From Mustelus asterias (lineage: Eukaryota): a stretch of DNA of 64,000 nt. This document shows positions 7,557-54,049 of this stretch, piece by piece. Location: the NCBI RefSeq assembly GCF_964213995.1, contig NC_135818.1:88040001-88104000 (forward strand), written 5' to 3'. Positions within the stretch are counted from its first letter, which is position 1; each line of letters opens with the position of its first letter. Position numbers and translations under genes: made by a program. The notes under the pieces were generated by a model. The model was given only the letters and a program-made list of their open reading frames with translations. It did not search any database and was not told the DNA's origin.

Positions 7557-7621
7557 CTGACCAACTCGAGCGTGTTTGTGTCGTCCTTCCAGACCCAATG
7601 TGCCGGTACAGCGGCAATCAG
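7557..7621 (-). CDS. PPP1R36: PPP1R36 coding exon 2 (65 nt): LIAAVPAHWVWKDDTNTLELV
   Basis: Acceptor tgtgtttttgcag, donor AG|gtaagt; WxWKDxTxTLE matches recalled human PPP1R36 MWYWKDETRTLEF; syntenic position downstream of HSPA2. Confidence 0.8.
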
Positions 7622-8040
7622 CTGCAAAAACACACATAGCCCAATTTGGAAAATGAATCCATAAGATTTGCAACAGGGTATCACAAAATAAAGAATAAAA
7701 GGGTCAAGATATCAGCAATACACCCTTGTCTTGCCGGCCTTCTAGGATTGTCCTGGAGTCTCCAGGGATTGAAGATTAATCTTCTGGAGAATACTCGGAG
7801 CGAAACGCCGGAGAAAAATCACAGGAATATTTAACAAAACTGTGTTTCTTTTACTTTCTATCAAACCTTTGGTCTTTCAGTTGTATAAAAAAATTGGAGA
7901 TGTCTACAGTAAGTTGTTGGACAGCAAAGATTAATCCTATTGGGTACAAAGGGTCAGTTCTATTTCCATTGGCTATGAAAAGACAGTGTTCCTAGAGGAC
8001 AGCAGTGCCAGGCAGGGGCAATTTGAGCTTGGAGGTCAAG

Positions 8041-8730: not shown

Positions 8731-8914
8731 ATACCCCAATACTTCCCCTTTTTGAACTCAACATGGCCCAAACTATCTACACACCCTTCCCCAGACTCAT
8801 CGTCCTTCTCTTTGATCGATACTGACGAAAACTACTCATTTACATGCAGTTGACTCACCCATGTACTCGCCACAGGATTCCCAGCCTCTGCCCTGCTCTT
8901 GACGCCACAGTATT

Positions 8915-9415
8915 TATATTTGATTTGATTTATTATTGTCACATGTATTAACATACAGTGAAAAGTATTGTTTCTTGCACGCTATACAGACAAAGCATAC
9001 CGTTCACAGAGAAGGAAACGAGAGAGTGCAGAATGTAGTGTTACAGTCATAGCTAGGGTGTAGAGAAAGATCAACTTAATGCAAGGTAAGTCCATTCAAA
9101 AGTCTGACAGCAGCAGGGAAGAAGCTGTTCTTGAGTCAGTTGGTACATGATCTCAGACTTCTGTATCTTTTTCCCGAAGGAAGAAGGTGGAAGAGAGAAT
9201 GTCCGGGGTGCGTGGGGTCCTTAATTTTGCTGGCTGCTTTGCCGAGGCAGCGGGAAGTGTGGACAGAGTCAATGGATGGGAGGCTGGTTTGCGCGATGGA
9301 TTGGGCTACATTCACGACCTTCTGTAGATCCTTGCGGTCTTGGGCAGAGCAGGAGCCATACCAAGCTGTGATACAACCAGAAAGAATGCTTTCTATGGGG
9401 CATCTGTAAAAGTTG
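8915..9415 (-). mobile_element. Rex1/Babar-type LINE 3' fragment
   Basis: Reverse complement resembles the Rex/Babar RT C-terminal region at 59050-59300; tail ...tacatgtgacaataataaatcaaatcaaa. Confidence 0.65.
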
Positions 9416-17147: not shown

Positions 17148-17632
17148 AGCAAAAAGCAGAATACTGCGGATGCTGGAAATCTGAAATAAAAACAGAAAAT
17201 GCTGGAAATACTTAGCAGATCTGGCAGCATCTGTGCAGCGAGCAAGAAAATTAATGTTTCAGGTTGATGACCTTTCATCAGAACTGGGAAAAGTTTAGAG
17301 ATGTAATAGGATGCATATTTCTGGCTTTCTCTTGTATTAGCTTTCAGACAACAGCAGACCGAGTCTTGGAAGATCTTTTGTTTTTTTTCTTGCCCCATCA
17401 ACATTCCCTTTAGCACTGGAGGACTCTTCTATCCTTCAATTTCTCCCGTCTCCCACCCTGTCACAGACCTTTGACCTTGCCGCACTTACCCCTGGCTCAA
17501 AACCAATTACATCTCTAACTTTTCCCACTTCTGATGAAAGATCACTGATCTGAAAGGTCAACTCTTTTCCCTTGCTCCACAGATTCTGTCTGACCTGCTA
17601 AGTGTTTGCTGCATTTTCTGCTTTTATTTTGA
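17148..17632. mobile_element. Penelope-like element termini in inverted arrangement (second family) with degenerate hammerhead motifs
   Basis: 17150-17290 is the reverse complement of about 17520-17630; cores CUGAUGA-A-AGGU(CAUCA)ACCU-GAAA (minus, 17249-17285) and CUGAUGA-A-AGAUC(ACU)GAUCU-GAAA (plus, 17527-17563). Confidence 0.65.
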
Positions 17633-18778: not shown

Positions 18779-20418
18779 TCAGTCAACTTCTTCAATAGTG
18801 GGTCCAGAAGCATTGCTAGGATTGGAGGTACTGCCAGCCCCCCCAGGCATACCAGCACAAGGACAGCGAAAGAATTTAGCTATTGGCTTGCAAACTTTCT
18901 CCAGCTCCTTCTGCTGGTGCTCAAACTCATCCTTCTCTGCTGCCTGGTTTCTTTCCAGCCAGCTAAGGACTTCCTGACATTTCGCAAGGATTTTACTCCT
19001 TTCCTCATCAGTGATTTTTCCTTTCAGCTTCTCATCTTGTACCACTTGCTTCACAGCATATATATAAGTCTCTAGGGCATTTTTGGCAGCCACTTTTTCA
19101 CGGTTTGAATCATCCTCGGTCCTGTAGTGTTCTGCATCCTGTACCATGCGCTCAATCTCATCTTTGCTCAGCCGTCCCTTGTCATTAGTGATGGTGATCT
19201 TGTTTTCTCGCCCTGTGCTCTTGTCCACAGCTGAAACATTCAGGATACCATTGGCATCTATGTCAAAGATCACCTCTATCTGTGGCACTCCACGCGGAGC
19301 TGGTGGGATATTAGAAAGGGCAAATTTGCCAAGCAGATTGTTGTCTCTGGTCATTGCCCTCTCACCTTCATAAACCTGAACGAGGACGCTGCTTTGATTC
19401 TCTGAATAAGTGGTGAAGATCTGAGTCTGCTTGGTGGGGATAGTAGTGTTTCGTTTTATGAGGGGAGTCATGACACCTCCAGCTGTTTCAATACCTAGAG
19501 ACAGGGGAGCAACATCCAACAGCAACAGGTCCTGCACATTTTCAGACTTATCGCCTGTTAAAATAGCTGCCTGTACAGCAGCACCATAAGCCACAGCTTC
19601 ATCTGGGTTGATGCTCTTGTTCAGCTCTTTCCCATTGAACAATTCTTGAAGCAGTTTTTGGATTTTAGGGATCCTCGTGGAGCCTCCGACAAGAACAACA
19701 TCCTGAATCCGAGTCTTGTCAATTTTTGCATCGCGAAGGGCTTTTTCAACAGGGTCCAGTGTGGCTCGGAACAGATCGTTGTTCAATTCCTCAAACCGGG
19801 CCCTTGTGATGGATGTATAGAAATCAACCCCTTCGTACAGCGAGTCAATCTCAAGACTGGCTTGTGTACTTGAGGATAGGGTCCTCTTGGCACGCTCGCA
19901 AGCCGTACGCAGACGTCTTACTGCTCTCTTGCTCTGGGCGATATCCTTTTTAAATTTCCGTTTAAATTCTTCCATGAAATGGCTTACCATGCGATTGTCA
20001 AAATCTTCTCCTCCCAAATGAGTATCACCAGCAGTGGACTTGACTTCAAAGATACCTTCTTCAATGATAAGAACAGAAACATCAAATGTTCCACCTCCCA
20101 AATCAAAGATGAGGACATTATGCTCACCAGGTCCTGTTTTGTCTAGTCCGTAAGCAATGGCAGCTGCAGTTGGTTCATTGATAATCCTCAGCACATTTAA
20201 CGCAGCAATGGTTCCAGCATCTTTAGTGGCTTGTCTTTGACTATCATTAAAATAAGCTGGCACTGTGATCACAGCATTCCTCACGGCAGTGCCCAGGTAT
20301 GCTTCTGCGATCTCCTTCATTTTTGTCAGCACCATAGAGGAAATCTCCTCAGCAAAGAAAGTCTTCTGTTCTCCTTTGTATTCCACCTGAACTTTGGGTT
20401 TCCCTCCTTCACTAATCA
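18779..20418 (-). CDS. HSPA2: Hsp70, HSPA2 orthologue, coding exon 2
   Basis: [24 protein letters not shown] and terminal GPTIEEVD; HSPA2-type residues MTPLIKRN and [13 protein letters not shown]; acceptor tcatctttccccag|TG at 20419. Confidence 0.9.
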
Positions 20419-20516
20419 CTGGGGAAAGATGAATGAAGACATTTTTAATAAGTGAAATAAATCTCTTTCCATTTCTTAACAGAATATTTGTAATCTTTTA
20501 ATGTCAAATACTTCCC

Positions 20517-20603
20517 TACCAAATAAACCTGTTGGACTTTAACCTGGTGTTGTTAAACTTCTTACTGTGTTTACCCCAGTCCAACGCCGGCATCTCCACA
20601 TCA
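20517..20603 (+). mobile_element. 87-bp Penelope-like terminal fragment with 13-bp target-site duplication
   Basis: tcaaatacttccc at 20504-20516 and 20604-20616; insert matches the terminus of the elements at 32476 and 29780-29861. Confidence 0.8.
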
Positions 20604-20740
20604 TCAAATACTTCCCCTCACAGGTAAATGGTAAGGCATACTCGCAGACCACCCCTGCCAATTCTAATTTATAACCATCTAGGTATGGTGTGGACAAGAA
20701 CGCAAAGCAGCTGATCTTCAGAGATTAGATGCTTACAGCA

Positions 20741-23226
20741 ACATGACCCATTATGTTTGTGTTCTTTCCAAAACTAATCTCATTGGACTGCATTTTCCCT
20801 CTGTTATGGTTCAGGTTAGAAACTCCAAAGTGTTTTATGAAGCTCACCTGAATCATCAGTTTTGCAACTTGAATTTGACTAGGATAAGCATGATATGTTC
20901 CAGCTCAGGTGTGATTCCAAAGACCCACTAGGGAGCTTTTATCAAAGTTTATTTAAGAATATAGCTAACATGTATTGTAAGAAATTTAGCAATAACTTTT
21001 ATCAATTACAAACAAGAAACAAAACAACTACTACAATGTATAACCCTTAACAAATGTATCTAATATGTTCCAATCAAACCAATCACATGGACAAAAGACC
21101 TTTTTCACAGGTTTAACATAGCATAGACTAATGCTCATGTGATACTGGATTTGGGACCTTTGGACAAAGTCTGTAGTTCTCTGGATTCACTCCGAACAGT
21201 TTGAAGACAAGGCAGCTTCCCAAAACACCAGAGAGATTCTGGTCCAGCCCCCAACAACACCAGATTTTCACCCTTCATGAAAACAAGACAATTTCCAAAA
21301 AAAAAGGGAGAGAGGGAAAACACTTCTTTTTAGCTTGCTGTCCCTTCTAAAATTTAAAACTCAAACCTACAGCTGCAAACTGAAACTGAAATTGAATCTG
21401 ACACCTGACCTGCCCAGTTTTTTTCTTCTCCCAACAATTACATCACCTAAGGCTGTGAGCATAAATTTTTTTTTTTAATTCTTAAAGGTACAAAAACATC
21501 ACACCTCCATCCTTAAGAAAGAAAATTAACCATCAACATTCAAAGATAGTTTCATTTTTCAAACCCCTTCAGTTTCACAGTACTCGTACTCTGCGATAAG
21601 TATACATACATTTTACAAAATCAAAACATGCAAACATAATAGTAATATAGTCCATTTCAGTTTTTGTCTTCCACCATTGAACACTTTTTTAAAGTCACAT
21701 TCATGACAAAGCATCCTCCCCAAAATTCTCCTTTAATCTTTAATCCTGCGTTGATTCCAAGTTCAAATTCAGTTTGTTATTGTGATAAATTAGCTCTGGT
21801 AATGTCCTCACAGAACTAGGCAGGATCAGCAGGATAACACATTACATGGGTGTAGTCAGCGGCATTTAGAAAGGTAATTTTATCTGTGTCCTCTTTCTTG
21901 TTCATTGGCCTTAGCTCCTCCTCTGTCAAGCAATTTGACTCCTTTGTTTGCTCTGGATCTGTACCATCATTTTCTGCACACTCTTTGACAAAGACACATG
22001 GCAGATTGTCTTTCTTGGTGTCAGAACCCATTTTGACCATGGTTCCAAATAGCTACTGTAATGTATTTGAACACTAGCAGTGTACAGTGCGGTTTCACTG
22101 GGCATCCACATCTCTGCACGCTGTACACAATCATTATGCCAGCAGTTCATTTTAGATGATGGTACAATTTTGGCAAACAGTCTGATTCCACCTTGTTGTC
22201 CTTTCCTTTGATCCACATTAATATGATACTTCCACTCCTCAATCTCCTTTTTTAGATCACACATGACCGTTGATTCATCCACACTTTCCTTTGCATGGAT
22301 GATGTGCTGTTTCTGATGGTCCTGCAATTTATGTTCAGGCAATTTGAACAACTCAGGAACATGTTCCAAAACAGCCAACTTGTCTTGTATCTCTCTCTCT
22401 ACACCTGCTCACTTTCTTTGTTCACATTTGTGTCCATTAACTGGTTTTCCTTCTTCAGTTTTGTGTGATTGGTCGAGACTTTCAGCTGCTGCATCTCAGA
22501 CTCAGTAAACATGACCATCAAAATTTAATAACACCTTTATAGAGTCCAGGCCAATAAAAATGTTTTTGTATTTGAGGCTGAGTTTTCCTTACTCCCAAAT
22601 GACCTCCTACTGGTATCTCCTACGCTACTCGCAATATCTCCTTTCTATACCCTACCGGCAATATCACTTGATGAACTTCTGCCTACTTTTCATCCGAATA
22701 TGTAAAGGTCTCCATTTCCTCATTAAGACATCATTTTTAAGGTAATAACATTCTAGTATACACTCAGATTCTTCTTCTATGTATGCTTTCTGATACAACT
22801 GTTTTATTTCTGTATTTTTCTGTTGTAACTCTGTCTACTTTCCCGAACTAAAAATATCCACCTCATCCACTGGATTTGGGACCTTTAGATGAAGTCTGTA
22901 GTTCTCTGGATTCACTCCAAACAGTTTGAAGACAAGGCAGCTTCCCAAAATACCAGAGAGACTCTGGTCCAGCCCCCAACAACAAGAGATTTTCACCCTT
23001 CAGGAAAACAAGATAATTTCCAAAAAAAGGGAGAGAGGAAAAACACTTCTTTTTAGCTTGCTGTCCCTTCTAAAACTTCAAACTAAAAACTCAAACCTGC
23101 AGCTCCAAACTGAAACTGAATCCCTGTCACCTGACTGCCCACAGTTTTTTCTCTCCTCCAAACAATGAAATCACCCAAGGCCATGAGCATGAATAAAAAA
23201 AACTCTTAAGGTACACGAAGATCACA
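20741..23226 (-). mobile_element. Internally deleted Gypsy LTR retrotransposon in the HSPA2 intron
   Basis: Direct repeats 21145-21503 and 22870-23226 (LTRs starting TGTGAT on the minus strand); PPT aaggatggagg before 21503; decayed pol ECYYLKNDVLMRKWRPLH...HLGVRKTQ at 22550-22860. Confidence 0.75.
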
Positions 23227-23404
23227 TCGCTGTATAAACCCAGCTTCAGACATTCATACATTTTTTTGTTGAAAGATGTCGGGCCCAACCAGTTCCTTTA
23301 ATAAAGCATTCAATCTCTAACAACTCTCTGCATGTTGAAAGTCGACAATTTTTCTCCTCATTAGCACTGGCTTGTGTAACATGACATCCGCTCCTTAGCC
23401 AGTT

Positions 23405-23650
23405 CCCCAGGGGGGAAAGGTTCAGTGGGGATGTGCGGGGGAAGTTTTTTTACACAGAGAGTGGTGGTGACCTGGAATGCACTGCCATGTGAGGTGGTTG
23501 AGGCAGATATGTTAGCGGCATTTAAAACTTAACTGGATAGACACATGAACAGATGGGGAATAGAGGGTGGGTCTAGATAGGACAACGTGATCGGTGTAGG
23601 ATTGGAGGGCCGTAGGGCCTGTTTCTGTGCTGTTCTTTGTTCTTTCTCTA
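23405..23650 (+). mobile_element. CR1 3' end fragment
   Basis: ttttttacacagagagtggtg...gggccgtagggcctg...ttctttgttcttt. Confidence 0.75.
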
Positions 23651-24179
23651 CTCATTCAATCAACATATAAACTAGAAGCAGGAGTAGGCCATTTGGCCCT
23701 TCGAGCCTGCTCTGCCATTCATTTTGATCATAGCTGATCATCAAACAGATTTAACATCTGTTAAATCTCTTAGTATCTTATGCACCTGCACTCACACTTT
23801 CTGGGAATCACGCATTTTAAGAAAGAGGGTTTTTCTACTTCACTGTATCCATCAGCACCTGCCATTAGTGCAAAGTCCCATTTCTGTTTTTCCTTCCAAA
23901 GTAGATCACCTCACAGTTCCACATTAAAATTGCATTGTCACTAAACTGCCTATGTCCTGCTAAACACGGCATGGTGGCACGTCTCCTCCCCATGCTCCAT
24001 TTGCTTTCCTGTATCTCTGACCCCCTCCAACCCTCTAACTGGAGACAAGCTGGAGAGATCGCCCCAGAGTCCTGATCCATCGACCCACATCACCAAATCA
24101 GATGATCTGGTCATTATCACATTGCTGATTGTGGGGTCTTGCTGTGCACAATTTATTTTTTACATTACTGGAGTGTCGT

Positions 24180-27100
24180 AGAGTCACAGAGGTTTACAGC
24201 ATGGAAACAGGCCCTTCGGCCCAACTTGTCCACGCTGCCCCTTTTTTTAACCCCTAAGCTAGTCCCGAATACCTGCGTTTGGTCCATATCCCTCTGTACC
24301 TATCTTACCCAAGTAACTGTCTAAACGCTTTTTAAAAGACAAAATTGTACCTGCCTCTACTACTATCTCTGGCAGCTTGTTCCAGACACTCACCACCCTC
24401 TGTGTGAAAAAATTGCCCCTCTGGACCGTTCTGTATCTCTCCCCATAAACCTATCTCCTCTAGTTTTAGACTCCCCTTCCTTTGGAAAAAGATATTGACT
24501 ATCTAGCTGATTTATGCCCCTCATTATTTTATAGACCTATATAAGACCCTCGTCAGACCCCACTTGGAATACTGTGCTCAGTTCTGGTCGCCTCATTACA
24601 GGAAGGATGTGGAAAAGATTGAAAGGGTGCAGAGGAGATTTACAAGGATGTTGCCTGGATTGAGTGGCATGCCTTATGAGGATAGGCTGAGGGAGCTCGG
24701 TCTTTTCTACTTGGAGAGACGTAGGATGAGAGGAGACCTAATAGAGGTGTATAAGATGTTGAGAGGCATAGATCGGGTGGACTCTCAGAGGCTTTTTCCC
24801 AGGGTGGAAATGGCTACGAGAGGACACAGGTTTAAGGTGCTGGGGGGTAGGTACAGGGGAGATGTTAGGGGTAAGTTTTTCAGAGGATGGTGGGCGAGTG
24901 GAATCGGCTGCCGTCAGTGGTGGTGGAGGCAAACTCAATAGGGTCTTTTAAGAGACTCCTGGATGAGTACATAGGACTTAATAGGATGGAAGGTTATAGG
25001 TAGGTCTAAAAGGTAGGGATATGTTCGGGGGCCGAAGGGCTTGTTTTGTGCTCTGGTTTTTCTATGTTTCTTTCTATGTTTCTAAGATCACCCCTCAGCC
25101 TCCTACACTCCAGAGAAAAAAGTCCCAGCCTCTCATAACTCAAACCATCAAGTCCCGGTAGCATCCTAGTAAATCTTTTCTGCACTCTTTCTAGTTTAAT
25201 AATATCCTTTCTATAATTGGGTGACCAGAACTGTACACAGTATTCCAAGTGTGGCCTTACCAATGTCTTGTACAACTTCAACAAAACATCTCAACTCCTG
25301 TATTCAATGTTCTGATCAATGAAACCAAGCATGCCGAATGCCTTCTTCACCACTCTGTCCACCTGTGACTCCATTTGAGCATGAACCTGTGTCCCGAGAT
25401 CTCTAAGTTCTATAACTCTCCCCAACGCCCTATCATTAACTGAGTAAGTCCTACCCTGATTCAATCTACCAAAATGCATCACCTCGCATTTATCTAAATT
25501 AAACTCCATCTGCCATTCGTAAGCCCACTGGCCCAATTGATCAAGCTCCCGTTGCAATCCAAGATAACTTTCTTCACTGTCCACTATGCCACCAATCTTG
25601 GTGTCATCTGCAAACGTACTAACCATGCCTACTAAATTCTCATCCAAATCATTAATATAAATGATAAATAACAGTGGACCCAGCACTGGTCCTTGAGGCA
25701 CACTGCTGGTCACAGGTCTCCAGTTAGAAAAACAACCCTCCACAACCACCCTCTATCTTTTGTCATCAAGCCAATTTTTTTATATCCATTTAGCTACCAC
25801 ACCCTGGATCCCATGAGATTTAACCTTATGCAACAACCTACCATGTGGTACCTTGTCAAAGGCCTTGCTAAAATCCATGTAGAAAACATCAACTGCACTG
25901 CCCTCATCTACCTTCTTGGTTACCCCTTCAAAAAACTCAATCAAATTTGTGAGACATGATTTTCCACTCACAAAGCCATGCTGACTGTCCCTAATCAGTC
26001 CTTGCATCTCTAAATGCCTGTAGATCATGTCCTTCAAAATACCTTCTAGCAACTTACCCACCACAGATGTGAGGCTCATCAGCCCGTAGTTCCCAGGCTT
26101 TTCCCTGCAGCCCTTTTTAAACAAAGGCACAACATTTGCCACCCTCCAATCTTCAGGCACCTCACCTGTGACTATCAATGATTCAAATATCTCTGCTAGG
26201 GGATCTGCAAATTTCTCCCTAGCCTCCCACAACGTCCTGGGATACACTTCATCAGGTCCCAGGGATTTATCTACCTTTGTGCCCTTTAAGTCTTCCAGCA
26301 CCTCCTTCTCTGTTATATGACATCACTATTTATTTCCCAAGTTCCCTAACATCCATGCTTTTCTCAACAGTGAATACTGATGAGAAATATTCATTTAGGA
26401 TCTCACCCATCTCTTGTGGATCCATACAGAGATGACCTTGTTGATCCTTAAGAGGCCCTACTCTCTCCCTTGTTACTCTTTTGGCCTTTATGTATTTGTA
26501 GAAGCTCTTTGGATTCTCCTTTGCCTTATCTGCCAAAACAATCTCATGTCCCCTTTTTGCCCTCCTGATTTCTCTCTCAACACTACTTCTACTCCCTCTA
26601 TACTCTTCAAGAGATCCACTTGATTCCAGCTGCCTATGCAGGTCATACGCCTCCTTCTTCTTGACTCGGGCCTCAATATCCCGAGCCATCCAGGATTCCC
26701 GGCTTCTACCACCCTTGCCCCTCACTCTAAGAGGAATGTGCTTACCCTGAACACTGGTTAACACACTTTTGAAAGCCTCCCGCTTACCCTTTGCCTTCCC
26801 ACAGACTCCTCCAATTAACTGTTGAAAGTTCCTGCCTGATACCACTGTGGCCCTGCCCCAATTTAGAATTTTAACTTTTGGGCCAGACCTATCATTCTCC
26901 ATAGCTATCTTAAAACTAATGGAATTATGGTCACTGGTCCCAAAGTGATCCTTCACTAACACTTCTGTCACCTGACCGTCCTTATTTCCCAAGAGGTCAA
27001 GTTTTGCCCCCTCTCTAGTCGGGCCATCCACATATTGAATGAGAAACTCCTCCTGAATGCACTCAACAAATTTCTCTCCATCCAAGCTCTAATACTATAG

Positions 27101-27720
27101 CTGTCCCAGTCAAAGTTGGGAAGGTTAAAATTCCCTACTATTACCACCCTATTTTTCTTGGGGCTATCTGTAATCTCCTTACATATTTGCTCCTCAATTT
27201 ACTGCCAGCTTTTTGGGGACCTATAGTGCAACCCTATCAAAGTGATTTCCCCCTTCTTATTTCTCAGTTCTACCCATATAGACTCAGTGGGTGAACCCTC
27301 GGATATATCCGCTCTCAGTATTGCCGTGATGTTTTCCTTAATCAAAAGTGCAACTCCCCCTCCTCTCTTACCTCCTGTTCTATCTTTCCTATAGCATCTG
27401 TACCCTGGAACATTGAACTGCCAGTCCTGTCCTTCCCTTAGCCATGTTTCAGTAATTGCTATGATATCCCAGTCCCACGTACCCATCCATGCACTGAGTT
27501 CATCTGCCTTGCCTGTCAGGCCTCTTGCATTGAAATAAATGCAGTTTAATCTGGACTTCCCTTGCTCTCTGTCTTGCTTTTGCCTGGTCTGTCTGGTACT
27601 ACGATTACTGACACTGCCTTTACTGTTTAATGTGGTCTCTTTAACTTCTGTGCTGTCCTCAACCTTCTCTTCCGTCTCCTTACTGCTTTGGGTCCCACTC
27701 CCCTGCCAAACTAGTTTCAG
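24180..27720 (-). mobile_element. Long degenerate CR1 (APE endonuclease plus RT) with a nested plus-strand CR1 3' piece at about 24538-25083
   Basis: ORF pieces CIYFNARG/IAITETW, SDH, GPD, QHGF and FADD; the nested copy is near-identical to 41330-41860. Confidence 0.9.
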
Positions 27721-27826
27721 TAAGGGCGGCACGGTGGCACAATGGTTAGCACTGTTGCCCTCACAGCACAGTAAGAAGTCTCACAACACCAGGTTAAAGT
27801 CCAACAGGTTTGTTTGGTAGCACAAG

Positions 27827-27863
27827 CCACAAGCTTTCAGAGCGCTGCTCCTTCATCAGGTGA
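27827..27863 (-). ncRNA. Minimal hammerhead ribozyme motif, sense to the HSPA2 pre-mRNA
   Basis: UCAC-CUGAUGA-A-GGAGC(AGC)GCUCU-GAAA-GC-UU-GUGG. Confidence 0.6.
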
Positions 27864-27950
27864 GTGGGAGTTGTGTTCACAAACATGGCATATAAAGACA
27901 CAAACTCAATTTACAAGATAATGGTTGGAATGCGAGTCTTTACATGTAAT

Positions 27951-29000
27951 TGCCTGCAGAAGGCAGAGAGTGGCTGTGGAGGGGTCTTTCTCTGCATGGA
28001 GGTCAGTGACCAGTGGAGTGCCCCAGGGATCTGTTCTGGGACCCTTGCTGTTTGTCATTTTCATAAATGACCTGGATGAGGAAGTGGAGGGATGGGTTGG
28101 TAAGTTTGCTGACGACACCAAGGTAGGTGGTGTTGTGGATAGTTTGGAGGGATGTCAGAAGTTGCAGCGAGACATAGATAGAATGCAAGACTGGGCGGAG
28201 AAGTGGCAGATGGACTTCAACCCGGATAAGTGTGTGGTGATCCATTTTGGCAGATCCAATGGGATGAAGCAGCAGTATAATATGAAGGGTACCATTCTTA
28301 GCAGTGTAGAGGATCAGAAGGACCTTGGGGTCCGGGTCCATAGGACTCTTAAATCGGCCTCGCAGGTGGAGGATGCGGTCAAGAAGGCGTACGGCGTACT
28401 GGCCTTCATTAATCGAGGGATTGAGTTTAGGAGTCGGGAGATAATGCTGCAGCTTTATAGGACCCTGGTTAGACCCCACTTGGAGTACTGCGCGCAGTTC
28501 TGGTCACCTCATTACAGGAAAGATGTTGAAGCCATTGAAAGGGTGCAGAGGAGATTTACAAGGATGTTGCCTGGATTGGGGGGCATGCCTTATGAGGATA
28601 GGTTGAGGGAGCTTGGTCTCTTCTCCCTGGAGAGACGAAGGATGAGAGGTGACCTGATTGAGGTTTACAAGATGTTGAGAGGTCTGGATAGGGTAGACTC
28701 TCAGAGGCTATTTCCAAGAGCTGAAATGGTTGCTACGAGAGGACACAGGTTTAAGGTGCTGGGGGGTAGGTACAGAGGAGATGTCAGGGGTAAGTTTTTC
28801 ACTCAGAGGGTGGTGGGTGAGTGGAATCGGCTGACGTCGGTGGTGGTGGAGGCAAACTCGTTGGGGTCTTTTAAGAGACTTCTGGATGAGTACATGGGAT
28901 TTAATGGGATTGAGGGCTATAGATAGGCCTAGAGGTGGGGATGTGATCGGCGCAACTTGTGGGCCGAAGGGCCTGTTTGTGCTGTGGCTTTCTATGTTCT
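27951..29000 (+). mobile_element. Young 5'-truncated CR1 inserted in the Penelope arm
   Basis: Open RT C-terminal frame (27925-28926); atgtaat duplicated at 27944-27950 and 29001-29007. Confidence 0.9.
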
Positions 29001-29730
29001 ATGTAATCAAGTCTTAAAGGTATAGACAATGTGAGTGGAGAGAGGATTAAGCACAGGTGAAAGAGATGTGTATTGTCTCCAGCCTGGACTGTTAGTGAGA
29101 TTTTGCAAGCCCAGGCAAGTCATGGGGGTTACAGATAGTGTGACATGAACTCAAGATCCCGGTTGAGGCCGTCCTCATGTGTGCAGAACTTGACTATCAG
29201 TTTCTGCTCAGTGATTCTGCGTTGTCATGTGTCGTGAAGGCCGCCTTGGAGAACGCTTACCCGAAGATCAGAGGCTGAATGCCCATGACTGTTGAAGTGT
29301 TCCCCAACAGGAAGAGAACACTCCTGTCTGGTGATTGTCGAGCGGTGTTCATTCTGTCGTAGCCGTCACAGGCATTCAGCCTCTGATCTTCGGGTAAGCG
29401 TTCTCCAAGAGGGCCTTCACGACACACAACGCAGAGTCGCTGAGCAGAAACTGATAGCCAAGTTCCGCACACATGAGGACGGCCTCAATCGGAATCTTGG
29501 GTTCATGTCACACTATCTGTAACCCTCACGACTTGCCTAGGCTTGCAAAATCTCACTAACAGTCCAGGCTGGAGACAATGCACAGCTCTTTAACCTGTGC
29601 TTAATCCTCTCTCCACTCAAATTGTCTGTACCTTCAAGACTTGATTACCTGTAAAGACTCGCATTCCAACCATTATCTTGTAAATTGAGTTTGTGTCTTT
29701 ATATGCCCTGTTTGTGAACACAACTCCCAC

Positions 29731-29767
29731 TCACCTGATGAAGGAGCAGCGCTCTGAAAGCTAGTGG
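29731..29767 (+). ncRNA. Minimal hammerhead ribozyme motif
   Basis: UCAC-CUGAUGA-A-GGAGC(AGC)GCUCU-GAAA-GC-UA-GUGG. Confidence 0.6.
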
Positions 29768-30859
29768 CTTGCGCTACCAAATAAACCTGTTGGACTTTAA
29801 CCTGGTGTTGTGAGACTTCTTACTGTGCTTACCCCAGTCCAACGCTGACATCTCCACATCATAGCCTCACAGCGCCAGGGACACGGGTTCGATTCCCGGC
29901 TTGGGTCATTGTCTGTGCAGAGTCTGCACATTCTCCCCATATCTGCATGGGTTTCCTCCCATAGTCCGAAAGACGTGCTGGTTAGGTGCATTGGCCAAGC
30001 TAAATTCTCCCTCACTGTACCCGAACAGGCGTCAGAGTGTGGTGACATAGGGGATTTTCATAGTAACTTCATTGCAGTGTTAATGTAAGCCTACTTGTGA
30101 CACTAATAAATAAACTTTAAAGTTGAAACTTTTTATCAGCCTTGCTATTTGAAAAAACCCTTATTTTTGCATTTTAGGCAAATTGTTATCTTGTGATCCC
30201 TAAGCCCAACTCCAAATCATTAGTGTAAACACCAGGAAGCAAGAAAATGGACGTTACACTGGTTCTGAAGGTACACTAAGTCCAACTCTTCTCCCAAGCT
30301 GGCAACTAGCTCATTGCCTCTTGGCCACCAACAGATTTTCTGTCCATGGTTCATTCTTCTTGCACCATGTACTTAAAATTTTACAACAAACCTCTGTGGG
30401 ACATTCTCAAAATCTTTCTTAAAACTTCATGTAAATATCAGCTTTTATTGCACCACTTTCCCATATGTTACTCTCATCTGTCACTGTTTCAAGAACTGTA
30501 GGGGACCTAATAACAGCAAAAACCCCAGAGTTAGCGAGGAAAAGGAGGAGTGGAAGAGAGTGGAAGAGGAAGACCTCAAAGTGAATTGAAGAATGTTTGT
30601 GGAGAAAGGAAATGAGGTTTTGCTTTTGGCTAACTTGTGTTTGAAGTGTTTCATAAATCTTTAATGTTCAGATCAAGAATTGCATTATTTCCTGAGGCAA
30701 TTGGGGGGGGGGGGGGGGGGGCGGGGGAGGGGGGTACATTTCTATTTTTGATTGTGATCCCGTTATGTCATGTAACATCATGCTCAGAGTACCATCTAAA
30801 GATGCAGTATTATTGGAATGTTATCACCACACAAAATTTTTAATAAATGTGGAGGTGTT

Positions 30860-32120
30860 CATATCATGGAGGGATCCACTGTCAATGACAGAGCTTCCTT
30901 GAGATGAACAAAGACTAATGTCAGGGGAGTCTTGTTGTGGAAAACCTCGTGTCTCATGGCACTGTACACCTTGCCCTTCCAGTAGCCATCAGAATCATTG
31001 TAGCCTTGAATTTCTTCACTTCTGGCTTCTTCCAAAGAACAGCTGTGGGCTTTGGTGGTATATCGCAAATGGCTGCATCTCAAGTTCTTGATGTCCTCTT
31101 TGCAGTACTTCCAATTCCAGACATAGGGTGCCTCACAAGAACAAAGGGTTTTGTCTCCAACACTTGATTTGTGCAGATGTAGGAGGGACATCATCGATTG
31201 ATGGCCATCAAAGCATTTAATGACCGGCTTGTGAGATTTATTAATAGGAACTGCTTTCACTTGCTCAACATTCAATTGGTCTGTGACCACAACAAGAGTT
31301 CTGTCTGTGCGCTCACTTTCCTGACAGCTGCCATGGGTCCTTCATCACCCTCCAGCCCAGGGTGCAGAAGCTTTCACTCCACCAACTAAACTCCATGGAT
31401 CCATTCTAAGGGACGAATGATAGCCGTTGAAGAGATAGCTATTTACCCTTTGCAAGAATCCAACACAGGGGCAGAGCTATTACAATTATAGCCATCTGCT
31501 CACTAAGACAACCAATGTGCAAGCCATCAAGCTTCTGAAGATGTGATTTTGGCGCTTGGACCAGTCGGGTGACAGTCGGGGGGTGGCGGGGGGGGGGGGG
31601 GGGGTGGCGGCATAGTGCTTAGCATTGCTGCCTCACAGCTCCAGGAACCTGGGTTCAATTCCGGCCTTGGGTCACTGTCCGTGTGGAGTTTGCGCATTCT
31701 CCCCATGTGTGCATGGGTTTCCTCCAGGTGCTCCGGTTTCCTCCCACTGTCCAAAAGATGTGCAGGATAGGTTGATTGGCTATGCTAAATTGCCCCTTAG
31801 TGTCCCAGGATGCATAGGTTTGAGGGATTAGCGGGCTAAATATGTGGGGTGACGGGGATAGGGCCTGGATGGGATTGTTGTTGGTGCAGACTCGATGGGC
31901 CAAATGGCCTCCTTCTGTACTGTAGGGATTCTATAAACAAATACAGTACACTCCTTTGATGTTCTCCAGAATGATAGTGGTCTGCTATATTCTCAAAAAC
32001 ATTACTCTCCAGAGAGGTGCAGACCTTGAAGAGGATGCAGTTCATAGGAGGAGGAGGATGAAGAGGAGGAGAAAGATGAAGACCCAGAGTTGCTGTGAGG
32101 TGGCAAAAGAATCCTTTAGA
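30860..32120 (+). mobile_element. PIF/Harbinger transposase relic, interrupted by a V-SINE (about 31600-31933)
   Basis: ALPVAIRIIVALNFFTSGFFQ...GGISQ, AIKA...FINRNCFHLLNIQLVCD and QYTP...SRMIVVCYILKNI match HARBI1-like motifs; frameshifted. Confidence 0.75.
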
Positions 32121-32475
32121 ATGTCCTGTGATCGTCTTTTATGTACAGATGGTTTACTTAAATTGTATCAAAGAATGATTAGTATCAAACATACAAATTC
32201 AGCTAAAAAACGTTGTTGTCTGTGCCTTAAAACGCACCAAGTTTCATTCTTCTATCACTTTCTGCTCGCTGAACTACACTGGTTTCTGGTTGGCAATGTC
32301 TCAATTTTCAAATTCTCATCCTTATTTTCAAATCTTTCCTTGGTCTCTCCCTTTTCTATCTCTGTAACCTCCTCCAGCCACACATCACATCATAATCTTT
32401 GTGCTCCTATAGTTCTGGTTACTCAAGTATTCCAGATTTTAATCGCTGCACCATTCAGCTGTTTACAATTGTCAA

Positions 32476-32719
32476 GATGTGGAGATGCCGGCGTTGGACT
32501 GGGGTAAACACAGTAAGAAGTTTAACAACACCAGGTTAAAGTCCAACAGGTTTATTTGGTAGCAAAAGCCACACAAGCTTTCGAGGCTCTGAGCCCCTTC
32601 TTCAGGTGAGTGAAGAAGGGGCTCACCTGAAGAAGGGGCTCAGAGCCTCGAAAGCTTGTGTGGCTTTTGCTACCAAATAAACCTGTTGGACTTTAACCTG
32701 GTGTTGTTAAACTTCTTAC
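32476..32719. mobile_element. Penelope-like fold-back mini-element with two hammerhead motifs and a 12-bp TSD
   Basis: Near-perfect inverted repeat of about 100 bp; tacaattgtcaa at 32464-32475 and 32720-32731; cores CAC-CUGAAGA-A-GGGGCU(CAG)AGCCUC-GAAA-GC-UU-GUG at 32572-32609 (-) and 32623-32661 (+). Confidence 0.85.
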
Positions 32720-32729
32720 TACAATTGTC

Positions 32730-32915
32730 AATGCAGGGGATTGTTAAAACTCTATATAACTGCAGGTTGTTAAGGCGCTACATCAATGCAGGGGTAGTTA
32801 AGGCGCTGTATCAGTGCAGGGGGTTGTTAAGGCGCTGTATCAGTGCAGGGGGTTGTTAAGGCGCTATATCAGTGCAGGGGGTTGTTTAGACGCTATATCA
32901 ATGCAGGGGTTTGTT
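32730..32915. repeat. Minisatellite of about 29 bp, about 6 copies
   Basis: Unit atcagtgcagggggttgttaaggcgctgt. Confidence 0.85.
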
Positions 32916-32979
32916 GTTGACGGAAGCAGCTCCGGTGCCGGCGGCCATTTCATGCCCTTCCCATCCTCACCCCGCTCAC

Positions 32980-33265
32980 CGGTGAAAGGCCAGTGCTTCA
33001 TGTCGGTCTGCACCATCGGGTCATCGAAGGTGCGACCGATCAGCCTCTTGGCGTCGAAGACGGTGTTGGTGGGGTTAATGGCCACCTGGTTCTTGGCGGG
33101 GTCGCCGATCAGGCGCTCGGTGTCGGTGAAGGCCACGTAGCTGGGAGTTGTGCGGTTTCCCTGGTCATTGGCGATGATCTCCACCTTGCCGTGCTGAAAT
33201 ACACCGACGCACGAGTAGGTGGTGCCCAGGTCAATGCCGACGGCCGCCGCCGAACGGTCCGCCAT
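32980..33265 (-). CDS. HSPA2: Hsp70, HSPA2 orthologue, coding exon 1 (95 codons + 1 nt)
   Basis: Kozak gcgccATGG; [37 protein letters not shown]; donor ACCG|gtgagc at 32979; the splice gives [14 protein letters not shown], 641 aa in total. Confidence 0.92.
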
Positions 33266-42344: not shown

Positions 42345-42740
42345 TAGAGTGGAGGAGAGAGAGAGGGAGGGAGGAGAAAGGGAGGAAGGAGAGAGGGGGA
42401 GGGAGGAGAGAGAGGGAGGAGAGAGAGGGGGAGGAGAGAGAGGGGGANNNNNNNNNNNNNNNNNNNNNNNNNNNNNNNNNNNNNNNNNNNNNNNNNNNNN
42501 NNNNNNNNNNNNNNNNNNNNNNNNNNNNNNNNNNNNNNNNNNNNNNNNNNNNNNNNNNNNNNNNNNNNNNNNNNNNNNNNNNNNNNNNNNNNNNNNNNNN
42601 NNNNNNNAGAGAGCGGGAGGGAACAGAGAGGGAGGAGGGGGGAGAGAGAGGGGGAGGGGGGAGAGAGAGGGGGAGGGAGGAGAGAGCGGGAGGGAACAGA
42701 GAGGGAGGAGGGGGGAGAGAGGGAGAGACTGAGGACAGAG
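42345..42740. repeat. GA-rich low-complexity tract containing an assembly gap (N at 42448-42607)
   Basis: Purine-rich runs on both sides of 160 N. Confidence 0.95.
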
Positions 42741-43927: not shown

Positions 43928-46048
43928 TCACATTTTCTTGGTGTGGCTGCTCAGATGGTGCATTGTCAGCTCTTTCTTCAGCTTGAACTTGTCCCCGCAC
44001 AGGGTGCAGGCGTGGAGGTGGACATCAGTGTGACGTTCCAGCGACTCTCCATCCCCAAACACCTGGAAACAAACCTCGCAAATGACCTCTCTGCCCGCAA
44101 GGTGGGACACCATGTGCCGCAGGTGGTCATGCTTCCGGTAGCTGCCCTGGCCACACCTGGGGCAGACGTAGCGGGCATCGCCTCTGTGCATGTCGAGGTG
44201 GAGCCGGAGCAAACGCTCCCGCAGGAATTCCTTGCCACAGATCTGACAGGCAAACTCCTTCTCCTTGGTGTGGGTGGTGAAGTGTTCCCGAAGGTGGCAT
44301 CGTTGGTAGAAAGCCTTCCCACAGAGGTTGCAGACATGTTTCCGCCGATCCACATGCTCAGATGAGGCCTCGCGGGCAGGCTGTCCAAACATGCAGCGGG
44401 AGACATGCTCGACCCACAGTTTCTCCTGGTCAAAGGCTCGGGCACACTGCGGGCACTGGAAGTTGCGGCCTGTGTGCCGGTACATGTGCTCCTGGAGCTG
44501 CCAGCGTTGCTTGAAGCTTCCCCCACATACCTGGCAGGTGAACCGGCTCACTTCATGCCCAGGGCTCTCGGGTGAGGGACCCTCCGTAGATGCTGCAGCC
44601 GAGGAGGGGAGCAGTTCCCCTCCAGCCTGCCAGGTGTACAAGGTGTCATGTGCTCCCAGGCATTGCTCAGCATGTTCCTGCAAGCGACCCCCCTTTACCA
44701 GGATCCGGCCACACTTACCGCAGGCGCACACACTTTCCACATGATGTGCCACGTAGTGAGCAGATCGCTCACTCTCGGGCAATGCCACACCGCACAGCTC
44801 ACAGGCTGGCCCCAGAGGACTGTCCCCCTCTCTCTGTGGCTCCATCTTCAAGACACCCTCCAGTCCGTCCTCCTCTTCGTCCTCCTCCTCCTCCTCTTCC
44901 TCCTCCTCTTTCTCATCCACTGTCCAGCCAGATTGACCCTTGCCCTTCTCCACTGTCCGTTGATGGCTACTGCCCACAGCTGCCCTCCTCTGGGTGGGGA
45001 AGCTGTTGTAGACTTTGCCAGCTTCCTCAAAGGTCATTCTGTCTTCCTTCTCCTCGTCAGAGGGGAGGTCGGCATCATCCATCACCTGAACCACGGTGAT
45101 ATCACCGAGGTCGACAGCTGCCGTGTCCTCGGGCTCACTTTTCACCAGGTGACTGTTGGTTGCAGAATCCAGGAGGTCCCCCTTGGAGTCAGTGTCATTT
45201 TCTGAGCTCTCCTCAGTTGGGATCTCGGAGGAGTCTGCCCGTCCCCCAGGGCCTTCCTCGCCTGCCCGTTCAATCTTGTCAGAGCTGCTCTCCTCCCCCG
45301 CTCCGTCGGTTCGGGGGGGCGCGCGTCTGCTGTTGCATGTCAGTGCATGCTCGTTGAGGAGCTTCTCACAGCTGAAAACAAAGCCACAACAGTCACAGGT
45401 GTAACGCTTCCCAAAACGATGGTGCAGCCTCCCCTTCAGGCCCGTACGGCTCTGCTTGCGGGGAGGGCTGGAGGCCTGCTTCTTGGGCAGGCAGTCCACG
45501 CTGGAGGGCAGCAGCGGGAGAGGGGGCAGGAGGGGCAGAGGGACAGTACAGGCCTTGTTAACCTCGGGACTCGGTTCCCTGCGGGTCCTCTTGGTCGCGT
45601 CCAGTGGGTCATCATACATACGGACCCCGAACATCATGGAGTCTTTGGGGCAGCCAAAAGCCAACGGTGGTGACTGCACAGACTTTCCATTGCTCTCCTG
45701 CAACTCATCCAAGCTCTTTGGCACGTAATAAAGCTGCAGGAAGGTCATGGCTGACCGCAACTCCTCAAAGTCAGAAGGCACTCCCACCAGCCTGCCCAGG
45801 TACATGATCTGCAGAATGAGGTCAAAGCACTCAGCACTGATGTTGACATTGCTCAGACTCAGGTTCCCTGTTAGTTGCTGCTGGCTGATGAACATCATTC
45901 GGAAATAGGAGCTGCAGGCAGTCAGCACTGCCCGATGGGCCCGAAAGTAAATGTCATTGATAATGATACAGCAATCACACAGGAAGCCCCATTCTCTCTG
46001 GTTGTTCAGCTGCTGCAGGACGTATTCACTATGGCTCAACCGTGACAT
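43928..46048 (-). CDS. ZBTB1: Zinc finger and BTB domain-containing protein 1 (706 aa, single coding exon)
   Basis: BTB start SHSEYVLQQLNNQREWGFLCDC, FGVRMY motif and C-terminal fingers CNLCGKAFYQRCHLREH and RKHDH match recalled ZBTB1; acceptor tttctgtttctttctag at 46076. Confidence 0.95.
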   Translation of the reverse strand: MSRLSHSEYVLQQLNNQREWGFLCDCCIIINDIYFRAHRAVLTACSSYFRMMFISQQQLTGNLSLSNVNISAECFDLILQIMYLGRLVGVPSDFEELRSAMTFLQLYYVPKSLDELQESNGKSVQSPPLAFGCPKDSMMFGVRMYDDPLDATKRTRREPSPEVNKACTVPLPLLPPLPLLPSSVDCLPKKQASSPPRKQSRTGLKGRLHHRFGKRYTCDCCGFVFSCEKLLNEHALTCNSRRAPPRTDGAGEESSSDKIERAGEEGPGGRADSSEIPTEESSENDTDSKGDLLDSATNSHLVKSEPEDTAAVDLGDITVVQVMDDADLPSDEEKEDRMTFEEAGKVYNSFPTQRRAAVGSSHQRTVEKGKGQSGWTVDEKEEEEEEEEEDEEEDGLEGVLKMEPQREGDSPLGPACELCGVALPESERSAHYVAHHVESVCACGKCGRILVKGGRLQEHAEQCLGAHDTLYTWQAGGELLPSSAAASTEGPSPESPGHEVSRFTCQVCGGSFKQRWQLQEHMYRHTGRNFQCPQCARAFDQEKLWVEHVSRCMFGQPAREASSEHVDRRKHVCNLCGKAFYQRCHLREHFTTHTKEKEFACQICGKEFLRERLLRLHLDMHRGDARYVCPRCGQGSYRKHDHLRHMVSHLAGREVICEVCFQVFGDGESLERHTDVHLHACTLCGDKFKLKKELTMHHLSSHTKKM

Positions 46049-46789
46049 CCTGGATTACCAATCCCAACCAGGATCCTAGAAAGAAACAGAAATTTGGATC
46101 ACTGAACAGCAAAGCACAGGAAGAGCCCATTCAGCCCATTAACTCCATACTGGCTCTTTCAGAGTCTCACTCCGCTGCTCTGCACCCATTCATTTGCAAC
46201 ATTTAACCAATTTGCCTTCAAATGCAATGATTCAATCTGCATTTCAAATCCTGAACCAGGGCTCTGAAACTGGCCATCCCATATCCACACCCAGTTCCTT
46301 CACATCTAATTTACGATTCTCAGCCTTCCCCAGTTGGAACACATTAAGATGAAAAAGGCCTTTAAAGTAAATGTGCGATGGAATTAAGGGGAAAAGTCAC
46401 AATTCCACAAATAAAAACAATAGACTCAGAGACAGACTTTGTAAAATACACAAACTGGATGTAAATGATTGAGAATTTAATAAACTCAACCTGACAACAT
46501 AGGGTCTGTGGACTTCAACAGAAAATGCAGCAGACTGTACACTTTTTTTCTGTAAATTAAAGAGACCAGCATTATCAGCTCTAGAGGTACAGTGACTCCC
46601 CGGCCGTAGAGGTCCAGTCACACAACTGTCATCAAGGTCCTGTCACACTATGACTGCAGATTATTCCTTTTCTTTGAGGAGCAGGTTTTTAGGATTGTGA
46701 CTATTATCAATGCTAATACAGCATAGGGCCTCAACCCTAGAACCATTCCCATGAATCCTTTTTGCATCCTCACATATCCTCCGCTAGAC

Positions 46790-51431: not shown

Positions 51432-51548
51432 CACTGTAAGAGTTTTAACAACACCAGTTAAAGTCCAACAGGTTTATTTGGTAGCAAATACCATTAGCTT
51501 TTGGAGCGCTGCTCCTTCGTCAGATGGAGTGGAAATCTGCTCTCAAAC
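51432..51548 (-). mobile_element. Penelope-like terminal fragment with a hammerhead variant (51491-51527)
   Basis: CCAU-CUGACGA-A-GGAGC(AGC)GCUCC-AAAA-GC-UA-AUGG; G12 mutated to A. Confidence 0.7.
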
Positions 51549-54049
51549 AGGATACTGGCCAGGATTCCCTGATCTCGTTTGCCCTGCCACCGCTGCCAGC
51601 GAGAATGGAGAATTTGGCGCTCAGCGGGACAGAAGAATCTCAGCCACGGGCGAAGTTGGAGAACTCCGGCCACCAAAGGGGTTTTGGTGGAGTAAATAAT
51701 GATAAACCATTTCCACTGGCAGAGCGATCGATAACCAAGGGCTTTAAAATCATTGAACCAGAGGGAGGATGGAGAGACTTTTTTTGAATCCTCCAAGTTG
51801 TTGTGATTGGGAATGCACTGCCTGGAAAGGGCAGGGGAAGTAGATTCAATGAAAACTTTCAAAATAACTTGTTTTTCTTCTTTATTATTTCATGGGATGT
51901 ATTTGTTTGCCTATCCCTAATTGCCATTGAACTGAGTGGCTTGTTCGGCCATTTCAGAGGGCTTTCAGAGTCAACCACATTGCTGTGGCTCTGGAGTCAC
52001 ATGTAGGCCAGACCGGGTAAGGACGGCAGGTTTCCTTGCCTAAAGGACATTAGTAAACCAGATGGTTTTTACAACAATCGATGACAGTTGTCATGGTCAC
52101 CAATACTGAGACTCGGTTTCAATCCCAGATTTATTAATGGAAATCAAATTCCACCAGCTGCCGTGATGGAATTTGAACCCATTTCTTTACACCCCCAGAC
52201 ATTAGCCTGGGCCTCCGGATTACTACTCTAGTGACATTGCCGCTACCCAACTGTCTCCCCAAATTGCAGGGCTATGGAGAAAGAACAGGGGAATGAGACG
52301 AGTCAGATAATATTATCATTCCAGTCTGATTTCGGAATGAAATGTTCATGTGCTTACAAACATAGAAACACACATACCGACATACAAACATACTCTAGGT
52401 ATGTATACCTAAGTATCCAAAGTGCCACATCACTCACTACTGCACCACAGTCAGTGTATTGAGCTAACAATCTGTCAGTCTGCAGTGTATACTGTGATCT
52501 GAGAAGTACAACGAAGCTCCAGCATTTGCATTTAAATTGTGATTATTTTCAATGTCTCGGAACAACAAGAACTGACACCGGCACAAATGGGCTGAATGGC
52601 CTCCTTCAGTGCCGTATCACGCTATGATTTTCCTGAGAAGACAGTTCCATAGATACTGGTCAAGTGAGGGAATACAGAAGAAAGGGCAGCATCAATCATC
52701 TCTTCTACCACCAATCATTTTGATGAAGCTAGCCTACTCATTTACCCTTGAAATCTTACATAGAAGCTGGAGGAGGCATTCAGCCCCTTCAGCCTATTCC
52801 ATCATTGATTTGTATCTGATCTGTACCACAACTCCACCTTGCTTTATATCGCTGGATACCTTTACTCAACAAAAATGATCAATCTCAGTTTGGAAAGCTC
52901 TGATTGACCCAGAATATTCACACCTTTTCAGAGGAGAGAGTTTCAGAATTCCACTGCCCTTTGTATGAGAAAGTGTTTCCTGAGCTCACCCTGAATGGCC
53001 TGGATTGAATTTTAAAATTCTGCCTCCTTCTTCTGGACACTACCCACCAGAGGGAATAGTTTCTCTGTCTCCATCACATCAAATCCCTTTGTGATTTTCA
53101 AACTCTCCATTAAATCACCCTTCAACCTCATAAGGTCAAGGAAATTAATCCAAGTTACTTCCTTCCCTTTGCTAATATTCAGTTTTCTTTAAACAACTTT
53201 TTCATAGAATCACAGAGTCCTAAAGTGCAGAAGAGGCCCTTTGGCCCATTGAGTCTGCACCGACGCATGAAAGGCCCTGACCTGCCCACCTAATCCCACT
53301 TGCCAGAATTAGGCACATAGTCTTGAATGTTATGGCGTGCCAAGTACTCATCCAGGTACTTTTTAAAGCATGTGAGGCATCTCGCCTCCACCACACTCCC
53401 AGGCAGCGCATTCCAGACCGTCAATTACTGGGAGACACCTCCCTGTGACATCACTCAACCTCCAAAAACAAGTTACATTTATATAACACCTTTAGTCTAA
53501 TAAATCATCGCAATGTACTTCATGAGAGCATTATAAAACACTGAGTCACACGAGGAGATATTAGAGCAGATGATGAAAAGCGATAGCTGTTAAAGGGAGA
53601 GAGAGAGACAGAGGTGGAGAGAGGGAATTTCAGAGCCTAGGGCCCAGGCAGCAGAGGGCACGGCTGCCAATGGTGTGGAGTTTATAACTGGGAATGTGCA
53701 GGAGATATCACTCCCTGTGACATCACTGTCACTGAGATACTCGCTCCCTGTAAGCACAGCAAAGTGTTTCACAAAGTTAACAGAATTGTAGCTCATGAGA
53801 TAGGAGATTCCGTGTTAAACTTGGATATAAAATTTGCTTAAGGTCAGAAAGCAGCTAGTGGTGATAAATGGTTATTTTTCAGGCTGGAGGGGGGTTAGAT
53901 AAGGTTCAGTCCCAGGACCACTGTTTTTCCTGACTTGAGTACTGGAATAAAGAGTAAAATGCCAACATTTCTTGATGATACTAAACTCACAGGTGTGGCA
54001 ATGAGGATGATACAAGTCAACTGTAACTGGACATCAATAGACTAGCTGA

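Follow-up and report, generated by a model that had tools for sequence, protein, structure and literature searches.

A 64,000-nucleotide stretch of the genome of the shark Mustelus asterias (assembly GCF_964213995.1, NC_135818.1, positions 88,040,001 to 88,104,000; hereafter the window) holds five short motifs with the core of a hammerhead ribozyme, and so raises the question of where they came from, whether such RNAs cut, and at what level selection keeps them. A preliminary description had assigned them to the termini of a Penelope-like element (PLE), a retroelement, and called them selected catalytic RNA structures. Using structural pattern searches, protein comparison and genome-wide counts of copy starts, we identify the window motifs as the ends, in pseudo-long terminal repeats (pLTRs), of an endonuclease-bearing PLE. 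We consider it quite probable that the hammerhead of this element cuts slowly, through copies paired by their AGCU palindromes, in the RNA of the element rather than at the dead sites in the window, and the genome carries an excess of young copies that begin exactly at the predicted cut.

All five motifs lie where they had been placed, and the window letters read as described. Their core, CUGANGA...GAAA-NN-UH in type I order, is intact in four copies and carries G12>A in the fifth. The motifs at 27827-27863(-) and 29731-29767(+) read TCAC-CUGAUGA-A-GGAGC-AGC-GCUCU-GAAA-GC-U-H-GUGG; those at 32572-32609(-) and 32623-32661(+) have the GGGGCU/AGCCUC form with an intact core, and that at 51491-51527(-), the G12>A copy, has the CCAU/AUGG form. 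They represent three independent insertions rather than five, the 27.8- and 29.7-kb motifs belonging to one, the 32.6-kb motifs to another and the 51.5-kb motif standing alone; two decayed motifs of another family and a tail-only stub, absent from the first reading, also lie in the window. Taken by itself, the loose core scarcely exceeds chance here (10 matches against 5.67 expected, with 6 of 100 shuffles equally high). The full structural descriptor, which includes U16.1 together with stem II and helix I, yields 40 matches in a 1.0-Mb sample of 100 evenly spaced 10-kb genome stretches against 0-1 in five dinucleotide shuffles, and none in the same 1.0 Mb when reversed. A genome-wide search, proposed earlier as a check, returned 138,932 matches to a degenerate core pattern in the 3.68-Gb genome against 252 for its reversed control, which puts the motif-bearing copies at about 140,000, and on these two contrasts a chance match is rejected. 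No hammerhead family appeared among the six matches at E<=1 in an Rfam 15 scan of the window, and the canonical type I attributes of an Rfam match, a helix III and a loop 1-loop 2 contact are absent, the monomer having no helix III. We also reject a microRNA reading: the Rfam microRNA matches fall below the gathering score and reflect the 32.6-kb hairpin only.

The PLE identity was borne out by a GIY-YIG endonuclease C-terminus lying upstream of the 27.8- and 29.7-kb motifs on opposite strands, and by intact pLTR-ORF-pLTR copies elsewhere in the genome (ORF, open reading frame). In a protein search of the genome, in which 120 of 51,750 candidates were scored and 20 loci examined for long frames, a whole ORF of 892-893 amino acids, starting directly after the long tail, was present at four (L072, L073, L074 and L083), and in the last three the motif flanks it on both sides. 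In full elements, then, the two motifs share a strand and are separated by 3.1 kb, each lying within a pLTR, and the predicted cut falls 99 nt upstream of the ATG of the 893-residue ORF, which encodes a reverse transcriptase (RT) followed by GIY-YIG. The window arm at 32476-32612 is identical to the intact element L073 at 137 of 137 nt, and the coding remnant of insertion 1 matches residues 815-892 of the element protein, P0001, at 78% (tblastn). L072, L073 and L074 differ from one another at 1-3 of 2,670 nt at three separately flanked sites, in keeping with the earlier suggestion of an active or recent shark lineage, which we regard as recent and probably still active. L072 and L073, both intact and nearly identical, lie 16 kb apart in opposite orientation (G000:C10:119505001-119531000), possibly through local re-insertion.

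P0001 (893 residues) is a single ORF with an RVT_1 match (E=4e-10) and, at its C-terminus, a GIY-YIG domain, carrying the motifs ADKG, GTAMG, YIDD, WYIGET, RMNEH, EHF..H.H and AEQKLI and, between RT and endonuclease (EN), the linker C754-X4-C-X2-C, through C762, which fits CX2-5CxxC. The Pfam GIY-YIG model gave no match to P0001 itself, although PF01541 is precomputed for many homologues; Pfam searches with a 336-residue RT-thumb piece and a 58-residue EN piece, and a sequence search of the PDB with P0001, gave no match. The named proteins most similar to P0001 come from Mustelus asterias (95%), Scyliorhinus torazame (86%) and Heptranchias perlo (85%), followed by turtles (43-46%). Insertions mostly consist of two inverted arms, one with a long and one with a short tail, within a 9-13 bp target duplication; this pairing of tails, which differ by 36 nt, holds in 31 of 32 sampled inverted pairs and 87 of 95 over all loci. 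The invariant tail contains AATAAA 17 nt past the predicted cut (L073:3238-3243; window 32675-32680), and copies lack poly(A) tails. In the youngest subfamily the end of the ORF bears ~75 additional nt, with a duplicated coding end (L073:5990-6075; also L072, L074, L078, L086 and L089), which alters the C-terminus and sets the distance from stop to motif at ~285 rather than 210 nt. Contigs of four sequencing runs (X1, X2, X4 and X8, whose status as RNA is a guess) carry the same element and subfamily motif variants (L073:3000-6500).

The motif varies in ways that respect the hammerhead. Among the 40 descriptor matches, all have an extra A between positions 9 and 10.1 (0, 1 or 2 extra bases were permitted), the 10.1-11.1 pair is G-C in 36 and, by CpG decay, G-U in 4, and N7, the free core position, is the variable one. 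G at position 17 blocks hammerhead cleavage; H17 is G in 794 of 108,406 pattern matches (107,612 are not G), while A, C and U are each characteristic of lineages in expansion. Helix III is indeed reduced to the palindrome AGCU in the main family, family A, with GC at 15.2-16.2 in 38 of the 40 matches. Families B and C have CG plus its CpG-decay forms there: both keep the core on other stems with the palindrome ACGU, family B with 7,456 matches (control 235) and family C, in which A10.1-U11.1 replaces G-C and helix I reads AGUU/AACU, with 2,166 (control 17). In L177 and L199, GIY-YIG ends that share 30-36% identity with P0001 are followed by decayed B-like motifs. The covariation claimed for the stems holds between lineages, including the switch from AGCU to ACGU in the two other families. 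Between subfamilies of the main family, the first pair (C-G/U-A) and fourth pair (U-A/C-G) of helix I and the third pair of stem II (A-U/G-C, via G-U) change on both sides, and stem II 3' strands vary only between C and U opposite G. In an alignment of 19 lineage representatives, pairing holds in 95.7% of 209 cells, against 26-46% in slid controls, and 9 of 11 pairs are altered on both sides; the rows were hand-picked from 167 haplotypes and the descriptor list and comprise family-A forms that recur and lack CpG decay, two older A copies represented singly, and single copies of B and C in the best state of preservation, a choice that favours the structure.

At the front of the motif, family B copies mostly lose similarity exactly at the helix I 5' strand (L131-L160, around 1500), and family C has there TCAGTT, which we take to be initiator-like, so that this strand in families B and C may mark a transcription start at the ribozyme front. 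Main-family arms show only a mild cluster of ends at -4 to -14 from C3.

We compared the motif with known systems through portions of the papers cited here and below. By every feature testable at the level of sequence, the shark motif is a metazoan PLE minimal hammerhead with predicted catalysis. It shares with the examples in PMC4209133 a type I core without a real helix III, palindromic 15.2-16.2, a short helix I, the extra nucleotide at 9/10.1, G10.1-C11.1, covarying families, a pLTR location, a majority of single truncated copies, and dual motifs either on opposite strands 100-700 bp apart or in tandem at ~3 kb. The extra nucleotide, G10.1-C11.1, palindromic helix III and covarying families have been known hallmarks since 2014 (PMC4209133), so the extra A and the palindrome noted earlier are present but need no viroid parallel. 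The shark motif differs in host, in a stem II of 5-6 rather than 7-8 bp, in the A10.1-U11.1 of old family C and in copy number, ~139,000 against ~4,000-9,000 in coelacanth and Xenopus (PMC4209133); no shark is named in the portions of that paper and its supplements covered here. Narrow literature searches returned no paper on shark PLE hammerheads, their single match using 'shark' for a shape. The Poseidon PLE of the green anole, PAc, likewise has its hammerhead at the pLTR-ORF junction, and its two RT start sites explain an optional tail of 30-40 nt, comparable with the 36-nt difference here; PAc belongs to another clade, and the shark element differs in its CX4CxxC linker, in a cut 99 nt upstream of the ATG rather than inside the ORF, and in a long tail that ends at the ATG (PMC11167929). 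A single ORF with RT and then C-terminal GIY-YIG, the DKG motif, the CX2-5CxxC linker, partial pLTR tandems, inverted 5'-truncated copies and a tail at one end are shared with Neptune/Nematis-type EN+ PLEs (PMC8557442). The predicted protein thus makes this an EN+ PLE, whose linker and architecture resemble Neptune or Nematis without favouring one over the other. Animal non-LTR retrozymes, detected in one chondrichthyan genome among 31 vertebrates, carry type I hammerheads related to those of PLE pLTRs (10.64898/2026.07.22.740005). Retrozymes are head-to-tail, non-coding tandem repeats, whereas the shark copies are scattered stubs, mostly inverted, that derive from an autonomous element; a retrozyme array is rejected, the window copies being inverted or solo and neighbouring motifs within 4 kb forming 13 opposite-strand pairs and 1 same-strand pair in a 1.2-Mb sample.

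Where, then, does selection act? From the same 1.2 Mb we assembled a tail-anchored set of 99 arms, of which 73 hold a recognisable core (both anchors limit mismatches) and 55 of these an intact one. Departures in the 73 arms number 28 at 949 non-CpG core sites, 34 at 2,190 tail-anchor sites and 16 at 146 CpG sites of C11.1/G12, and the first two figures indicate that inserted copies decay neutrally. The U of GCUCY and the G12>A change are not subfamily traits but products of CpG decay (10 and 6 of the 73 arms), which affects three of the five window motifs. The copies might nevertheless be selected, working ribozymes, cutting for example HSP70 pre-mRNA, whose intron hosts two of the insertions: the core is intact in the 32.6-kb pair, and the sense-strand motifs 27827-27863 and 32572-32609 carry the same AGCU palindrome 4.7 kb apart in one pre-mRNA. 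Each of these two, however, has an inverted partner, the 32.6-kb pair folding on either strand into one hairpin of about -200 kcal/mol; CpG decay and the comparison of core with tail show no conservation after insertion, and the motif density of the window equals the genome average of ~40 per Mb, which makes this reading very improbable. A host-domesticated ribozyme is rejected. The window copies are relics, decaying neutrally, the paired ones in inverted arms predicted to fold into long double strands that bury the motif, and selection shows at the level of source elements only; to that level alone does the description as selected structures apply.

A trace of what source RNAs did may survive in where copies begin. 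Genome-wide, 1,034 arms start at the first base after H17, against 325 at -1 and 312 at -2. The raw counts of 2,892 at +1 and 894 at +2 (also a G) are swamped by intact variants, at +1 one shorter by 2 nt (88 of 100 listed rows) and at +2 several (56 of 100); corrected by eye, 4-12 and 40-44 of 100 listed rows are junction-like, leaving about 115-350 and 360-390 starts. These counts cover the youngest subfamily only, and with flank filters that differ between positions and microhomology that shifts ends, the threefold excess is a rough one. Set against ~67,000 arms of that type (22 in 1.2 Mb), cut-site starts amount to 1.5% as counted and perhaps 3% after the filter. Among the first 40 cut-site copies listed, an inverted arm lies within 20 nt in 34; of these partners, 30 start at or past the cut, 2 within 2 nt before it and 2 further upstream (L308 being the one clear case). 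Where an arm starts at +1 to +25, its partner extends upstream in 5 of 10 cases (non-independent; Fisher p=0.004). Of the 40 cut-site arms, 27 carry the long tail and 13 the short one, a split more in keeping with two priming events than with a single snap-back.

We put at about one half the chance that this excess of starts is a trace of cleavage in living cells, left by RNA cut at H17. Equally balanced, in our judgement, is the fuller proposal that 1-2 thousand or more young insertions derive from H17-cut RNA and that two RNAs in one dimeric RT-endonuclease particle may pair and be cut together, as suggested by both arms stopping at the cut yet carrying different tails. The peak could instead arise at the DNA level only, by microhomology joining of cDNA ends, central deletion of the palindrome or RT pausing. 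The same AAA/AAG junction flanks recur at +2, 1-nt microhomology is recurrent, the palindromic hexamer AAGCUU just upstream ends right at the cut site, and the control for the asymmetry of partner arms is small. Position +2, however, also starts with G and offers the same microhomology yet has about one third as many starts; none of the 40 inspected copies has an internal deletion of the motif, and if RT paused at helix I, the stop would presumably lie a few nucleotides 3' of the cut. An origin at the DNA level is thus possible but rather doubtful. A narrow literature search gave no paper on cleavage-site truncation.

The slow cutting that we favour would work as follows. The AGCU of one motif would pair with that of another to supply helix III (after PMC4209133), cutting probably being confined to motifs so paired, with the element protein probably assisting the fold, by analogy with the anole PLE. 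Reverse transcription would begin at two tail sites 36 nt apart, as expected from the long and short tails of inverted pairs (PMC11167929). Most templates would be uncut, since an intact motif cannot be copied from cut RNA, barring religation; a few percent would be cut beforehand and yield arms starting exactly 3' of H17. Copies with intact motifs must come from uncut or religated RNA, which points to slow or late cutting, and slow self-cutting by the shark motif is likely, if predicted only.

Several observations weigh against this account. The covariation count over 19 rows ignores phylogeny, so that several double changes, as between family A and families B and C, are one event; helix I of the youngest subfamily has only 3 contiguous pairs, its fourth (1-39) being broken in all 7 of its rows; and the tail next to the motif equals the core in its conservation among subfamilies, so that catalysis is not proved by conservation alone. 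The cut-site peak amounts to only about threefold and comes from one subfamily only; in 10 of the 40 junctions inspected, 1-nt microhomology leaves 0 and +1 indistinguishable; and no peak is visible among the 99 arms of the 1.2-Mb sample, whose 5'-end map is broad, too sparse and, because some references carry their own inverted partner, unreliable beyond ~60 nt upstream; of its three calls at position 0, one (L179) is the end of a short interspersed nuclear element (SINE). By ViennaRNA, the dimeric hammerhead reaches -13.5 to -20.7 kcal/mol, whereas the best dimer reaches -28.5 to -40.6, and the monomer optimum of 4 of the 5 window copies sequesters AGCU in a different hairpin. In the anole PLE, mutation of the hammerhead leaves insertion in vitro normal, and RNA sequencing gave no reads ending at the cut (PMC11167929); Naiad PLEs thrive without hammerheads.

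The fold might accordingly be retained at the RNA front to bind protein, to act as a promoter or to position the RT, with cutting negligible or incidental in vivo. Metazoan minimal hammerheads have very low activity in vitro (PMC4209133), anole insertion in vitro dispenses with the hammerhead, the hammerhead fold is not the energy minimum, and most copied templates were uncut, as the 73 of 99 sampled arms with a whole recognisable core attest. G is nonetheless avoided at H17 while A, C and U expand, N7 varies as a free core position, the palindrome switches as a pair, copies start in excess at the cut site, and in anole the motif cleaves in the presence of protein and C3/G8 rescue is observed (PMC11167929). 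A non-catalytic role therefore appears unlikely, and the unfavourable ViennaRNA energies are in line with the low activity of minimal hammerheads and the protein requirement in anole.

As an annotation the locus is unremarkable, being a shark instance of a feature known in PLEs since 2014, but the extreme copy number and near-identical intact elements make this genome a good substrate for testing the role of PLE hammerheads. Cutting in vivo by metazoan minimal hammerheads is putative, given their low in vitro activity and the anole sequencing result, and an excess of cut-site starts makes the question testable from genome sequence alone. If the cleavage reading is true, past in vivo cleavage by a metazoan minimal hammerhead is preserved in this genome as a fossil record.

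Table 1. Coordinates of PLE insertions, hammerhead motifs and the host gene in the window.
Feature	Position	Strand	Remarks
Minimal hammerhead motif, insertion 1 left arm	27827..27863	-	C11.1>U (CpG decay), H17=U
Minimal hammerhead motif, insertion 1 right arm	29731..29767	+	C11.1>U, H17=A
Insertion 1 left arm	27768..29365	-	GIY-YIG C-terminal coding remnant 29365-29132, pLTR, short tail; blastn
Insertion 1 right arm	29360..29864	+	GIY-YIG C-terminus (stop near 29522), pLTR, long tail; position of inner edge approximate
Target-site duplication, insertion 1, 9 bp	27759..27767		second copy 29865-29873
Later LINE (long interspersed nuclear element) 3' fragment (RVT_1)	27951..29005	+	splits insertion 1 left arm; ~7-bp target duplication
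Insertion 2 long-tail arm	32476..32612	-	holds motif 32572-32609; blastn
Insertion 2 short-tail arm	32622..32719	+	holds motif 32623-32661
Target-site duplication, insertion 2, 12 bp	32464..32475		second copy 32720-32731
Solo short-tail arm, CCAU/AUGG subfamily	51432..51551	-	motif 51491-51527; G12>A breaks core
Tail-only stub, main family, without hammerhead	20516..20604	+	~13-bp target duplication
Decayed minimal hammerhead, older family C	17249..17285	-	helix I AGUU/AAUU, stem AGGUC/AACCU, palindrome ACGU, A10.1-U11.1
Second, more decayed family C hammerhead copy	~17527-17563	+	
HSP70 gene, intact, 641 aa, no stop	18779-33265	-	exon 1 33265-32980, exon 2 from 20418
HSP70 single 12.6-kb intron, after codon 95	20419..32979	-	hosts insertions 1, 2 and stub 20516-20604

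The HSP70 intron is crowded with PLE, LINE and SINE insertions (Table 1). Insertion 1 interrupts what is presumably a tRNA-type SINE, and the tail-only stub begins 12 nt past the predicted cut site. Insertion 2 measures 244 bp, and its arms form a near-perfect hairpin of ~100 bp that sits 260 nt from the HSP70 splice donor, where as modelled it could possibly serve as a double-stranded RNA or editing substrate. Between insertion 2 and the donor lies a tandem repeat with a unit of ~30 nt (32733-32910), and overlapping long frames point to other tandem arrays at about 50-51 kb and 61-63.5 kb. Elsewhere the window contains 160 N at 42448-42607 and an ORF of 708 amino acids with BTB and C2H2 zinc-finger domains at 43931-46054(-).

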